Assembly (NCBI GenBank): GCA_038999725.1
Contig: JAWBWS010000001.1
Coordinates: 32,001 to 96,000 of the forward strand
From: Candidatus Aenigmatarchaeota archaeon
Lineage (GTDB): Archaea; Aenigmatarchaeota; Aenigmatarchaeia; CG10238-14; SCSR01
Length of the DNA stretch: 64,000 nucleotides
Reading direction: 5' to 3'
Shown here: positions 45,001-48,000 of the stretch, piece by piece
Numbering within the stretch: the first letter of the stretch is position 1
Layout: each line of letters opens with the position of its first letter
Made by a program: the position numbers

Positions 45001-48000
45001 GCAAGCGAAAAAATTTTAAGGCTGTTTCATTCTCAAGATTACATAAATATAGTGAAAGAGCTTTCTGAAAAGGGGGAAGGTTATTTAGATCCAGACACAC
45101 CTGCTTTCAAAGGAATGTTTGAAGTAAGTAGCACAGTCGTAGGGGCTTCTGTGGAGGCTGTTGAAAGAGTTTTAAAAGGCGAAGCTGACAAAAGCTTTAA
45201 CTTGGTTGGTGGATTACATCACGCAAAGAGGCAAGGAAGCTCGGGATTTTGTATTTTTAATGATGTGGCAATTGCAATAAGTTATGCTTTGGATAAGTTA
45301 AAAGCCAAAAGAATTTTTTATGTTGATGTAGATGCTCACCATGGGGATGGAGTCTTTTATAGTTTTTATGAGGATGAAAGAGTTTGGATTGCTGACATTC
45401 ACCAAGATGGTACAACTTTATTTCCTGGGACAGGATTTGAGTTTGAAGTTGGGGGAGGAAAAGCCTATGGGACAAAGAGGAATTTTTCCCTACCTCCTTA
45501 TTCTGGAGACAAAGAATTGATGGAAGCTTTATGTAAAATTTTAGAGTTCGGTGAAAAAGCTGAACCTGAAATAATCCTGCTTCAAGCAGGAGCTGATGGA
45601 ATAAAAGGAGATCCTTTAACTCAATTGCAATATTCTTTGAAAGCCCACTCAAAGTTTGTGAGAGAAATAAATGAATTGGCAGAAAAAATTTGTGAAGGTA
45701 AGCTTATAATTTTTGGAGGAGGAGGCTATAACATAACCAATTGTAAGAAGGCTTGGTCTAATGCATTAGAGATATTGTTGAAGTGAATTTAAACTTGCAA
45801 TCATCAGGCTTAAGAATTAAAATTGCAAAATAAAAATGAGGTGAAATGATGGAAATCCTGCTTTGGATAGAGCAAAAGAATTTGCAAAAGGTTAAGGATA
45901 TTTTGCTTAAAGATGATGTTGTGTCAAGAGCTAGTATAACTTTCAAAGAAGCAAAAATAATGACTAACAAAGAAGGTTACTATTCTTATATTTCTGGTAC
46001 AGAAGAGCAATGTGTGAGGGCTTTAGAGATAGTAAAACTTAAAAATGAAAAAACAGGTGAAATAGTTGAATTAGCCAGAGAGGTAAAAGAAGAAGAAAGG
46101 AAGGAAGTGATAAATAAAATTAAAGAAGAAGAAAGGAAGGCAATGGAAGGATTTGGGGGTATATTTGGATAAATTGCATTTCAACTCGCGCTGGTAGTCC
46201 AGTCGAGAATGACTCTGGATTGGTCTAAGACGTCGATTTAAGCGGAACCCTGCCAACCAGAGGACAGAGCGGCGGAGACCCGGGTTCAAATCCCGGCCAG
46301 CGCATTTAACTTTTTTCTTCAATTCTCCTTTCTTGGAAGCTTGAGTAGTAAGCCAACTGACGATGTTGCTGGGTTTGGAGGGCTAGAGTGCATTTAAGCT
46401 TATATTTCTGAATTCTAAATAATTTTATTGTTGATTTCCATGATTTTTGGAAAGAAAAAAGATGAAAAAGAAGAACAAAAAATTTTTTCAAAAATTGAAG
46501 AGATTAAGCTCCCTACACTTGAAGAAATTAAATCACAAGAAACTCTAAAAGAGCAAGAAAGGAAGATTGAATCCAAGCCCTTGATTGAAGAACCTATACA
46601 TCCTCAGCCATTGCCACAAAAAAGTGAAATTGTGAGAAAATTGCCCCTTTTTGTAAAACTTGAAAATTACGAAGAACTTATTACAGCGATAAGTGAACTA
46701 AAAGAAGTTTTGAGTTTGATTAAAACCTCTTTTTCTTTGCTTGAAGAGGGTGAAAGAACAAAAATTGAAGCTATGGGAACAATCAAAGAAAACTTAAGCA
46801 AGGTAGAAGAAAAAATTTCCTATTTGAATTCAAGTTTGCTGGCTTCCGTACAAGAAGAAAAGAAATACCAAACTGAAGAAATCAAGAATTCTCTTTTAGA
46901 ATTGAAAGCAAAAATTGAAAAACTTAAACAAGAAATGCAGAGAATTTGATAAATTTTTTTCTTTTCTTTTTAAAAATAATTAATTGGGCAGGGGTAGCCA
47001 AGCGGTTAAAGGCGGCAGGCTCAAGTTTGGTTGAGCTTTGATCTGAGATGAAAGAAGGAACCTGCTGGCTTAGTGCCTTCGTGGGTTCGAATCCCACCCC
47101 CTGCATGATTTTTCTAACGTGCACCAGTCTTAATGAAATCGAAAAACTGAGTACAGAATATGAGAGTTGATATACACAATTATGAGAAGAGATTACAATA
47201 TTTTCTAAATAGACTGAATGGAATAGACAAAGAAAATAAAGAGGATATTTTTAAAATTTGTTAAGTATCTTTTTGCTGAAGGAATTTCAAAGGGAAGGAT
47301 TGCCAAGTATGTTTTTTGATAATAAATAATCAATCTATAAAGCAATATTAAATTATGTTCAATCGGAAATCACTAAGAGAAATAGAAATTGATGCATACA
47401 GAAATTGTCAACTCAAAATTTTGTCTTTGCTAGATCCTCCAGAGGGAGAGAAAAATTTAAAACTTCTTGACATTGGTTGCGGTGATGGTAGCTTTTCACT
47501 TGAAGTAGCTAAAAAATGTAATGCAAAAGAAATTCATGGATTGGAAATAAATAAAGATGTTTTAGAAAAAGCGAAAAAGAAAGGAATTAAAATACACGAA
47601 GGGGATGCAAATAAAAAATTTCCTTTTAAAGACAATTTCTTTGATGTGATTATAGCCAATCAAGTTGTTGAACATTTATTAAATCCTGACAATTTTTTTG
47701 AAGAAATTCACAGGATATTGAAACCAAATGGATATTGTATAATATCCACCCCCAATTTATGTTCACTACATAATAGAATTTTTATATTGCTTGGGTGGCA
47801 AATCACGAATATTTCACCAAGCACAAAAGTTGTTTTTGGTAATCCTAACAGAGGTGCCCAAAGTAATATGTGGGGTCCATATAGACATTTAACTATATTC
47901 TCCCCACCTGCATTAAAAGAAATGTCCGAGTTTTATGGACTTAAGGTGGAAAAAATTACTGGAAGTGGGTTCCATCCCTTTAAGTCTCCAATGTCAAATT

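Follow-up and report, generated by a model that had tools for sequence, protein, structure and literature searches.

The tRNA-Leu(CAA) locus

The window, which is the whole stretch of 64,000 nucleotides that was analyzed, contains a tRNA-Leu(CAA) gene with an intron at the 37/38 site. The organism is a tiny hot-spring archaeon with a genome of 0.7 Mb (93% complete). The following features were assigned at the gene, with positions counted along the window.

46988-47105, plus strand: tRNA-Leu(CAA) gene with a 37/38 intron (Rfam RF00005, 49.5 bits; cloverleaf from reading the sequence)
47015-47019 and 47061-47065, plus strand: anticodon stem, 5 bp (from reading the sequence)
47019-47025, plus strand: target strand G31 C32 U33 C34 A35 A36 G37 (C34 at 47022; C32 to G37 at 47020-47025)
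47026-47059, plus strand: intron, 34 nt (3' boundary uncertain by one A)
47031-47036, plus strand: antisense (putative guide) UUGAGC, six Watson-Crick pairs with A36, A35, C34, U33, C32 and G31
47037, plus strand: spacer U (N+1, position 5n), opposite the G of position 5b at 47054
47038-47041, plus strand: D'-like box UUGA (positions 4n, 3n, 2n and 1n; from reading the sequence)
47042-47049, plus strand: loop of the predicted K-loop, UCUGAGAU, 8 nt, of which the final GAU is L1-L3
47050-47054, plus strand: C'-like core GAAAG (1b-5b), forming with the preceding AU the box AUGAAAG (47048-47054)
47055-47059, plus strand: intron tail AAGGA ahead of A38, with the bases that would pair with C32 and U33 in a bulge-helix-bulge form

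Counted upstream from the D'-like box, the fifth base is G (47033), which pairs with the wobble base C34 (47022).

One module plan in nine tRNA precursors

The order found in tRNA-Leu(CAA), which is an anticodon-loop complement, one spacer base, a D'-like box, a loop and a C'-like box, is common to nine tRNA precursors of this genome. Eight carry the module in an intron (Leu-CAA, Leu-UAA, Gln-UUG, Trp-CCA, Arg-UCU, Met, Lys-UUU and Glu-UUC), and tRNA-Ser(UGA) carries it in the 5' leader. Two more of these genes lie in the window.

35026-35137, minus strand: tRNA-Gln(UUG) with an intron of the same plan (module 35064-35091; D' box CGGA 35079-35082; U34 at 35103; duplex of 10 bp)
63336-63439, plus strand: tRNA-Trp(CCA) with an intron of the same plan (module 63378-63405; D' box CUGA 63387-63390; C34 at 63370; duplex of 6 bp)

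The initial annotation had described the eight introns and the Ser(UGA) leader as built alike, and the same plan was read at every one of these sites. According to it, wobble nucleotide 34 also pairs throughout with the fifth base ahead of the D' box. This register was recovered on re-reading in nine out of nine modules, the partner being the first anticodon base with C-U before it. The D' box is UUGA in five modules, CUGA in three and CGGA in one, and the guide duplexes are between 6 and 10 bp in length.

The intron of tRNA-Trp(CCA) has a length of 31 nt and contains one D'/C' pair and one guide, directed to C34. The intron of tRNA-Leu(UAA) was read by eye as 49 nt, and a second intron splits the anticodon stem of this gene. 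Positions 4b and 5b of the Glu-UUC module are A38 and G39, and the leader module of tRNA-Ser(UGA) ends 3 nt ahead of the RNase P site. Two TATA-like stretches of the Ser(UGA) gene lead, in our judgement, to differing predictions on whether the leader transcript includes the guide.

Introns with a module are about 30-50 nt long; short 37/38 introns of 10-22 nt without a module are also present in the same genome, which is rich in non-canonical introns. ARAGORN predictions were not used, since genes were missed without the intron mode, and introns and anticodons were misplaced when introns were allowed (e.g., Lys-UUU was given as a 'stop' tRNA).

Specificity in the genome and distribution in related genomes

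A covariance model (R1) was built from the nine modules only; a MAFFT alignment of the whole anticodon arm was too poor for a model. The nine modules obtained R1 scores of 29.8-36 bits and every other site of the genome at most 25 bits. The next seven matches examined (25 to 20.5 bits) are all located within long open frames, and the top two have a broken box. A looser regular expression (TTTGA, 5-9 nt, GATGAAAG) gave ten matches, five of them inside tRNA introns, and none in its reversed form. The motif had been reported from tRNA introns only; as the looser expression also has matches elsewhere, the word 'only' hinges on the strictness of the pattern.

R1 matches (E ≤ 0.003) were identified in 75 of the 117 genomes of the order. 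They comprise 141 listed matches in relatives and 30 more, and the context counts given here are among the 141 matches listed. Among these, 140 are in tRNA context, all in one of the nine settings seen in this genome and with an unchanged register: introns of the eight anticodons account for 125 and Ser(UGA) leaders for 15. The remaining match looks like chance. In the initial annotation, 13 of 15 matches of the strict motif examined in relatives lay in tRNA introns, all 13 in one register; this observation is confirmed and extended by the 140 matches. Besides this genome, the leader module of tRNA-Ser(UGA) is represented by at least 15 matches in at least 14 related genomes. Covariation of guide and K-loop stem is seen across the order and also in a second part of the class. 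Within one genome, box-loop-box is near-identical among introns of different tRNAs.

Sequence constancy and covariation of the predicted K-loop

Both GA dinucleotides are invariant and were found in the expected columns of all 150 matches. All 107 distinct modules have GAU at L1-L3, 99 have a 5n:5b pair, and 102 have a U as the spacer (N+1), which does not track position 30. A D' box other than CUGA occurs in six of the nine modules of this genome and in 80 of the 107 distinct modules. The majority form is UUGA with GAAAG or GAUAG, with U:A at 4n:4b and mostly U:A at 3n:3b. The features by which K-turns and K-loops are recognized, i.e., tandem G.A, a loop U at L3 and a pairing non-canonical stem, are all present at the sequence level, and the anatomy of the module is that of a putative K-loop with an adjacent guide.

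Each of the 107 distinct modules has a Watson-Crick pair at 4n:4b (U:A 74, C:G 32, A:U 1), compared to 52 and 71 of 107 for the two adjacent registers, and in 86 distinct rows this pair was UA 56 times, CG 29 times, AU once and never unpaired; the model used for collection rewards a pair at this position, which biases these pair counts towards the structure. In the formal covariation count, 34 cells were changed on both sides, compared to 11.4 ± 2.4 in shuffled data (reached by none of 500 shuffles) and 0-5 in slid controls. Because the covariation at 4n:4b is above both the shuffles and the slid controls, the register of the predicted K-loop is under selection.

Guide pairing and the position of nucleotide 34

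Covariation of the guide was analyzed in 107 distinct intron combinations and 14 leader combinations. It extends over positions 31 and 34-37 and the first intron bases. For the 107 intron combinations, N+2 and position 31 form C:G (73), G:C (18) or U:A (11) with five mismatches, N+5 and position 34 form A:U (75) or G:C (32), and N+6 and N+7 are paired in all cases. The first intron base is paired by N+9 in 63 of 90 intron cases and in 13 of 14 leader cases; in the leaders this pair is A:U eight times and G:C four times (n = 14).

In the related genomes, N+5 pairs with nt 34 in 140 of the 141 listed matches, all 140 having C-U before nt 34 and a purine after the anticodon. Their duplexes range between 5 and 11 bp with a mode of 8, and 17 of the 140 listed reach 10 bp or more. 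The five bases ahead of position 32 form five of five pairs with the downstream strand in 122 and four of five in 18 of the 140 listed matches, a check that is unsound where a second intron splits the stem, so that the five of five obtained for tRNA-Leu(UAA) in this genome is spurious. For the listed matches, the anticodon loop of its own tRNA was the sole complement found for each guide.

The pairing takes in sequence that exists only in the precursor (the first intron base), as in the intron guide of pre-tRNA-Trp. Because the guide pairs with the first intron bases, the leader guide would read the unspliced precursor. The leader version shows that the module is independent of intron structure.

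Relation to splicing

Taken as a strand of the bulge-helix-bulge, the 3' end of the intron forms four of four pairs in 55, three of four in 37, two of four in 29 and one of four in 2 contexts (n = 123). Because the bulge-helix-bulge helix would use this 3' end, the predicted guide is not the splicing helix. In the RNAfold structure, the guide hairpin encloses the 5' splice site and buries it, and the guide hairpin and the bulge-helix-bulge helix are mutually exclusive. In most introns among the listed matches, 2-7 nt separate the end of the module from the 3' splice site. Only one frame for a splicing endonuclease was detected (193 codons).

Proteins, ordinary guide RNAs and wobble enzymes

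The genome encodes L7Ae (105 bits) and Nop5 (209 bits), and fibrillarin (279 bits) follows about 0.4 kb downstream of Nop5 on the same strand. Counted along contig C1, the genes are at 201538-201816 (L7Ae), in the region of 188896-189537 (Nop5) and at 189922-190578 (fibrillarin). Fibrillarin was found in 111 of the 117 genomes of the order and was ruled out as a phyletic discriminator, since it is near-universal.

A terminal box C/box D pair, absent according to the initial annotation, was likewise not found by us in the introns or in the flanks of the nine genes (60 nt upstream, 50 nt downstream). The curated C/D families of Rfam gave no match in the genome at the gathering score or at E ≤ 10, the only matches being tRNA, SRP RNA and chance matches. 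Ordinary full-size C/D sRNAs numbered zero with a strict regular expression in the genome, and a crude scan gave none in 80,617 nt of intergenic sequence. For box-guide-box units with complementarity to 16S or 23S rRNA, a crude scan counted 32, 7 and 2 at 9, 10 and 11 nt, compared to 22, 7 and 0 for the reversed rRNA; there is no excess of rRNA-guide candidates over this control, and the four top candidates that were read sit in apparent coding regions. Because no ordinary sRNA was found in these crude scans and rRNA guides are at the control level, the normal use of the C/D machinery in this organism is undocumented.

Neither an Elp3-type nor an NcsA/TtcA-type gene was found in this genome (93% complete). 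Among the listed matches, at least one module occurs in 24 of 55 Elp3-positive and 42 of 62 Elp3-negative genomes, and modules on Lys, Glu, Gln or Arg-UCU occur in 14 of 55 and 31 of 62, respectively; this anticorrelation is only a trend. It is largely due to one family, of whose 23 genomes 22 have Elp3 and 4 have modules, and the genomes of the set are related and non-independent, many of them having both.

Proposed function and alternative explanations

Each module is probably a reduced box C'/D' guide with a single K-loop that directs 2'-O-methylation of nt 34 before splicing. The D' box (UUGA, CUGA or CGGA) and the C' box (AUGA followed by AAG, AGA, UAG or UGA) would fold into a K-loop in which two G.A pairs are sheared, the loop ends in GAU and the non-canonical stem (3n-5n with 3b-5b) is short. 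L7Ae would bind this K-loop, and Nop5-fibrillarin would dock on the L7Ae-RNA surface. The 6-10 bases upstream of the one-base spacer would anneal to positions 31-37, either within one precursor or between two copies, so that nt 34 faces the fifth base ahead of D' (N+5), the position methylated by fibrillarin. The predicted product is Cm34 for three tRNAs (Leu-CAA, Met and Trp) and Um34 for the other six (Leu-UAA, Gln-UUG, Lys-UUU, Glu-UUC, Arg-UCU and Ser-UGA). Guide and intron 3' end would compete for the strand 32-35, and because both need it, the guide form would have to open before the bulge-helix-bulge is cut, which would place methylation before splicing. We infer protein binding, methylation, the order of events, the action in cis or in trans (by the excised intron or the released leader) and the sufficiency of a single K-loop.

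The initial annotation had already predicted half-size C/D guides for nt 34. This part of it is strengthened by the anatomy, the covariation of K-loop and guide, the register and the machinery genes, whereas the two box pairs of a full guide are absent. The lone K-motif, the short duplexes, the D' boxes that are mostly not CUGA and the lack of an Rfam C/D match are points against a guide. A possible answer to the lone K-loop could be two modules on one Nop5 dimer. Going further, the modules might be natural, self-sufficient half guides, by which nine tRNA precursors of this DPANN class would program their own wobble ribose methylation; in genomes such as this one, without an Elp3-type or NcsA/TtcA-type gene found, Um34/Cm34 would then be the main wobble modification of the tRNAs for two-codon boxes ending in purine. 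We offer this extension only tentatively.

The K-loop could instead be a site for L7Ae (or another K-turn protein) without a methyltransferase role. Bound protein would stabilize the hairpin in which the anticodon loop and the 5' splice site are concealed, and would serve as a folding chaperone or as a timer for the order of end-trimming, splicing and other modifications. The covariation speaks for a K-turn-like fold and not for fibrillarin recruitment, and such a timer fits the mutual exclusion of the guide hairpin and the bulge-helix-bulge helix as well as the closeness of most modules to the 3' splice site (2-7 nt, with A38 and G39 themselves used as 4b and 5b in Glu-UUC) and of the Ser leader module to the RNase P site (3 nt). 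According to the accessible part of the published work, single-motif complexes are also poor guides in vitro. For a mere clamp, however, there would be no need of a constant one-base spacer (a U in 102 of 107 modules), or of a duplex that begins exactly at N+2 and brings nt 34 to N+5 (140 of 141 listed matches). A clamp also gives no reason for the choice of tRNAs, five of which (Leu-CAA, Leu-UAA, Met, Trp and Gln) are predicted nt-34 targets elsewhere in the accessible literature, and the module-free 37/38 introns of 10-22 nt in the same genome apparently cope. We regard a protein site of this kind as rather unlikely.

It is improbable that the modules are one spreading or gene-converted intron family without a modification role, with the anticodon complement as a leftover of their origin or of recognition by a broad-specificity endonuclease. 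The near-identical box-loop-box in introns of different tRNAs of one genome, the many non-canonical introns and the single endonuclease frame of 193 codons agree with such a family, but the Ser leader module lies outside any intron and recurs with compensatory changes in at least 14 other genomes, guide and K-loop stem covary across the order and a second part of the class, and the 5' splice site is buried in the guide hairpin instead of being exposed. A guide with another outcome, in which an excised or circularized intron or a released leader acts in trans on other RNAs or recruits a different enzyme to the anticodon loop, is very improbable: although, in the accessible reports, trans action is favoured in vitro for the pre-tRNA-Trp intron and tRNA introns are among the circular RNAs of archaea, no complement was found for any guide except the anticodon loop of its own tRNA, and the 141 matches listed include no module away from a tRNA save one probable chance match.

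If the modules are methylation guides as proposed, a mechanism known for one tRNA (Trp) would be widened to nine tRNA species, and the presence of a guide in a 5' leader would link it to the anticodon loop and not to the intron as such. A concrete function is thereby offered for 37/38 tRNA introns, whose persistence is an old open question, and guiding would be a direct selective reason for it. The proposal also suggests how a 0.7-Mb genome, apparently without the usual U34 pathways, might still restrict wobble reading. The modules would provide a natural test of the long-standing biochemical claim that site-specific archaeal C/D guides need two box pairs.

Comparison with known systems

The published accounts are compared here as far as their accessible parts go. 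From the bipartite archaeal C/D sRNAs, the modules have the internal C'/D' motif, the N+5 rule and the genes for L7Ae, Nop5 and fibrillarin, whereas the terminal C/D K-turn and the 10-12-nt guide are absent; the duplexes here are mostly shorter (5-11 bp, mode of 8). As in the C'/D' K-loop of Pyrococcus, neither the GA dinucleotides nor the loop U vary, but that K-loop combines CUGA with UGAUGA, while here it is mostly UUGA with GAAAG or GAUAG and there is no partner K-turn.

One K-motif with one guide is also found in engineered half-mer or 'hemi' C/D RNPs and in a minimal single-domain snoRNA that is functional in Drosophila. Those RNAs were constructed in the laboratory and their K-turn is closed by a stem, in contrast to the natural predicted K-loop described here. 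The archaeal hemi-complex needed very high salt and methylated non-specifically in vitro, from which it was concluded that pinpoint specificity requires both motifs (Hardin and Batey, 2006). Because site specificity was lost in that complex, a simple equivalence of the modules to it is disfavoured.

In Pyrococcus, trans-acting C/D sRNAs have predicted targets at nt 34 of Leu-CAA, Leu-UAA, Met and Trp; in Pyrobaculum, the predicted targets are C34 of Trp (sR26), U34 of Gln (sR27) and nt 34 of Val (sR45) and Thr (sR46). These sRNAs share the target position, the N+5 rule and five of the nine tRNA species with the modules, yet they are free-standing with two box pairs, whereas here the guide lies within the precursor of its own substrate and has one box pair. 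The guide for Cm34 of tRNA-Met in H. volcanii pairs with intron sequence and therefore acts before splicing. In a survey of 2008 the Met guide is called 'always exonic', whereas it is intronic in this genome.

No description of intronic or leader half-guides in multiple tRNAs was found in our literature search (supplements aside), and the accessible part of a review of 2024 names only the Trp case of an intron guide. The archaeal pre-tRNA-Trp intron, known from Pyrococcus (sR50), Haloferax volcanii and others (at least 29 archaea), guides Cm34 and Um39. Like the modules, it is a 37/38 intron with an antisense by a D-type box and C34 at the fifth position, and it pairs with precursor sequence, so that it must act before splicing. 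It differs in having both C/D and C'/D' pairs with two guides (for C34 and U39) in about 100 nt in H. volcanii, compared to one K-loop and one guide here, and it is known for one tRNA, Trp, whereas the modules occur in introns of eight tRNA species and in one 5' leader. By this analogy, the guide proposed here would be a previously undescribed variant of the known pre-tRNA-Trp intron guide.

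Modules in tRNA introns and in a tRNA leader

The module, which consists of an antisense guide, a one-base spacer, a D'-like box, a loop and a C'-like box, was found in eight tRNA introns and in the 5' leader of tRNA-Ser(UGA), and it is a real, specific and conserved feature. The tRNA-Leu(CAA) gene was identified by an Rfam match and then delimited, with its anticodon stem, loop and intron, by a cloverleaf reading. The features in the window are as follows:

46988-47105: tRNA-Leu(CAA) gene
47015-47019 and 47061-47065: anticodon stem of tRNA-Leu(CAA)
47020-47025: C32 U33 C34 A35 A36 G37 of tRNA-Leu(CAA)
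47026-47059: intron, 34 nt
47031-47036: antisense UUGAGC, complement of G31-A36
47037: spacer, one U
47038-47041: UUGA, D'-like
47042-47049: loop, 8 nt, with GAU at its end
47050-47054: GAAAG, C'-like
35026-35137, minus strand: tRNA-Gln(UUG) gene with module
63336-63439: tRNA-Trp gene with module

C34 of tRNA-Leu(CAA) pairs with the G at 47033, the fifth base upstream of UUGA. The initial annotation had described the same plan for seven other introns and the tRNA-Ser(UGA) leader, which the reading of the sequences bears out; in all nine modules the fifth base upstream of D' is paired with the first base of the anticodon, which follows C-U. Five modules (Leu-CAA, Met, Lys-UUU, Arg-UCU and Glu-UUC) have UUGA as their D'-like box, three (Trp, Leu-UAA and the Ser leader) have CUGA, and Gln-UUG has CGGA. 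The C'-like box reads AUGAAAG in five modules and AUGAAGA and AUGAUGA in two each, and the guide duplexes are 6-10 bp in length.

The tRNA-Leu(UAA) gene (C1:198338-198502, outside the window) carries a 37/38 intron of 49 nt and a second intron that interrupts the 5' strand of the anticodon stem, and both boxes of its module are fully canonical (CUGA and AUGAUGA). In tRNA-Glu(UUC) (C7:276-382, outside the window) the C'-like box crosses the 3' splice site, with A38 and G39 of the exon as its positions 4b and 5b. This offset recurs in nine intron matches from relatives among those listed.

Specificity within the genome

The nine modules were aligned (A2) and converted into a covariance model, R1, with which the 0.73-Mb genome was scanned. 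The modules scored between 29.8 and 36 bits, followed by matches of at most 25 bits. The seven lower matches examined (25 down to 20.5 bits) are sites with long open frames, and in the two best of them the box is broken. A looser regular expression matched 10 times in the genome, five of these in tRNA introns, and its reversed form not at all. The variable guide bases agree with the anticodon of their own host tRNA in 9 of 9 modules, a match that R1 does not encode.

Distribution among relatives

Within the order, R1 matches were found in 75 of 117 genomes (E<=0.003). All 141 listed matches outside this genome (30 more lie beyond these) were retrieved and classified by script. All but one of the 141 lie at a tRNA with the register unchanged (140 matches); the remaining one is in a stretch without a tRNA. 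The listed matches include 125 introns of the 37/38 type (UUG 23, UAA 21, UUC 18, CAA 16, UUU 16, CCA 13, CAU 12 and UCU 6) and 15 leaders of tRNA-Ser(UGA) from 14 genomes. All 140 have C-U before the partner of the fifth base and a purine after the anticodon. Of the five bases that precede position 32, all pair with a downstream strand in 122 of these 140 and four do so in 18; this anticodon-stem pairing is a check of the register that is independent of the guide, and it breaks down if the stem is divided by a second intron, which is the case for Leu-UAA in this genome.

In a phylum-wide sample of 151 genomes, 33 had an R1 match at E<=0.001, among them 27 of the 52 members of the order. Outside the order, matches were found in six of 99 sampled genomes, all of the same class (families f18, 5 of 11, and f16, 1 of 12). 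Three of these six were read, two being Leu-UAA introns and one a Trp intron, with the same register. Since R1 is tuned to the boxes of this lineage, a missing match elsewhere means not found rather than absent.

The box pair as a K-loop

The K-turn reading, in which the D' positions are named 4n to 1n, the end of the loop L1-L3 and the C' positions 1b to 5b, was tested on 107 distinct modules from the matches listed. The 4n:4b pair is Watson-Crick in all 107 (U:A 74, C:G 32, A:U 1), and the spacer (5n) pairs with 5b in 99. At 3n:3b, U:A was found in 67, U.U in 27 and other combinations in 13 of these listed modules; L1-L3 is GAU throughout (107 of 107), and 102 modules have U as the spacer. 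With the register shifted by one base, which corresponds to the plain hairpin preferred by RNAfold, 4n is paired in only 52 or 71 of the 107.

A formal covariation count at 4n:4b over 86 distinct rows of the matches listed yielded 56 UA, 29 CG and one AU, with no unpaired row and no one-sided change. Two-sided changes amounted to 34 cells, compared to 11.4 +/- 2.4 in shuffles (0/500) and 0-5 in slid controls, in a collection gathered with R1, which itself rewards this pair. Since the best modules exceed the cut-off by 8-10 bits, versions mismatched at 4n:4b should still appear; none was found among the matches listed.

Pairing of the guide

Guide pairing was counted over 107 distinct intron combinations and 14 leader cases among the matches listed, with guide bases numbered N+1 (the spacer), N+2 and so on upstream from D'. 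In these intron combinations, N+2 and position 31 form C:G in 73, G:C in 18 and U:A in 11 cases, with five mismatches. C32 and U33 always pair with N+3 and N+4, followed by N+5 with position 34 (A:U 75, G:C 32). Pairing is complete at N+6 and N+7 (107 of 107 each); among the listed combinations, N+8 pairs with position 37 in 77 of 106 and N+9 with the first intron base in 63 of 90. N+1 is U irrespective of position 30 in the listed intron combinations, and it is part of the box stem, not of the guide duplex.

The listed leader guides also pair with intron bases 1-2 (N+9: A:U 8, G:C 4; N+10: 12 of 14). As they pair with the first two bases of the intron, they would read the unspliced precursor.

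Relation to splicing

A three-way junction is predicted by RNAfold: beside the anticodon stem there are two hairpins, one in which the anticodon loop pairs with the guide and one formed by the two boxes, and the 5' splice site is buried in the former hairpin. The bulge-helix-bulge helix was derived from the standard motif, pairing positions 32-35 with the last bases of the intron. In 123 distinct contexts among the matches listed, four of four pairs were formed in 55, three in 37, two in 29 and one in two. Positions 32-35 can pair with either the guide or the 3' end of the intron, and the guide and the splicing helix would therefore compete for one strand. The introns do not owe their spliceability to the guide. 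Those 37/38 introns of this genome that lack the module measure only 10-22 nt.

The sole match to the catalytic domain of the tRNA-splicing endonuclease lies in a frame of 193 codons (window 54815-55093, minus strand). Given many introns at non-canonical positions and this one match, a divergent second subunit may exist. Intron-bearing tRNA genes without a module were also read from the sequence:

44687-44770 (window): tRNA-Thr(CGU), 10-nt intron
52549-52630 (window): Val-type tRNA gene with intron
61235-61328 (window): tRNA-Thr(UGU), intron within the anticodon stem
C2:174920-175015 (outside the window): apparently tRNA-Ile(UAU), anticodon loop CUUAUA, 37/38 intron of 22 nt

The assembly comprises 0.73 Mb in nine contigs with 35% G+C, the window being C1 32001-96000, and the sequencing runs containing this DNA are all labelled hot-spring metagenomes. 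The archaeal SRP RNA is located at window 49433-49716 on the plus strand (113 bits). The 16S rRNA match (C4:64551-66904, outside the window) spans 2354 nt compared to 1478 model positions, which probably reflects large insertions or introns within the gene. For 23S rRNA, the match comes to within some 50 nt of the contig end.

Methylation machinery and wobble-modification genes

Nop5 (209 bits) and, about 0.4 kb further downstream, fibrillarin (279 bits) are encoded on one strand, and the genome also encodes L7Ae (105 bits). Fibrillarin is present in 111 of the 117 genomes of the order and is hence necessary for a guide function, with no discriminating power. A second box pair was not found in the introns or in the flanks of the nine genes. 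Crude scans of the genome detected neither an ordinary full-size C/D sRNA nor an excess of rRNA-complementary guide units, and Rfam C/D families gave no match even at E<=10.

The Elp3-type domain (PF16199) and the NcsA/TtcA/TilS-type domain (ATP_bind_3, PF01171) were not found in this 93%-complete genome; both searches match in four control model archaea. Across the order, modules among the matches listed are carried by 42 of 62 Elp3-negative and 24 of 55 Elp3-positive genomes, a trend confounded by relatedness, with both present in many genomes. In one sister family Elp3 was found in 22 of 23 genomes, in this family in only 24 of 68.

Predicted function and comparison with known guides

The module most likely acts as a reduced C'/D'-type guide which, ahead of splicing, would bring nucleotide 34 of the precursor that carries it under fibrillarin; this is favored, with some reserve, over its main rival, a clamp bound by L7Ae without methylation, which seems rather unlikely. 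An archaeal complex with a single motif reportedly required very high salt for activity and lost its site specificity, which speaks against a half-size guide, whereas the reported assembly of half-mer RNAs with all three proteins and a single-domain snoRNA reported to work in Drosophila speak for it.

Half-guides in introns or leaders of several tRNAs were not described in the literature searched, and a 2024 review names only the Trp case as an intron-embedded guide. Um34 and Cm34 are known from archaeal tRNAs, Cm34 being said to lock pairing to G. In Pyrococcus, Leu-CAA, Leu-UAA, Met and Trp are reported to have sRNAs predicted to target their nucleotide 34, and in Pyrobaculum the same is reported for Trp, Gln, Val and Thr. 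In Haloferax, Pyrococcus and at least 29 archaea, the intron of pre-tRNA-Trp is reported to contain both C/D and C'/D' boxes and to direct formation of Cm34 and Um39, and the Met guide is described as 'always exonic'. These known Trp and Met guides reportedly pair with intron sequence and consequently act before splicing.
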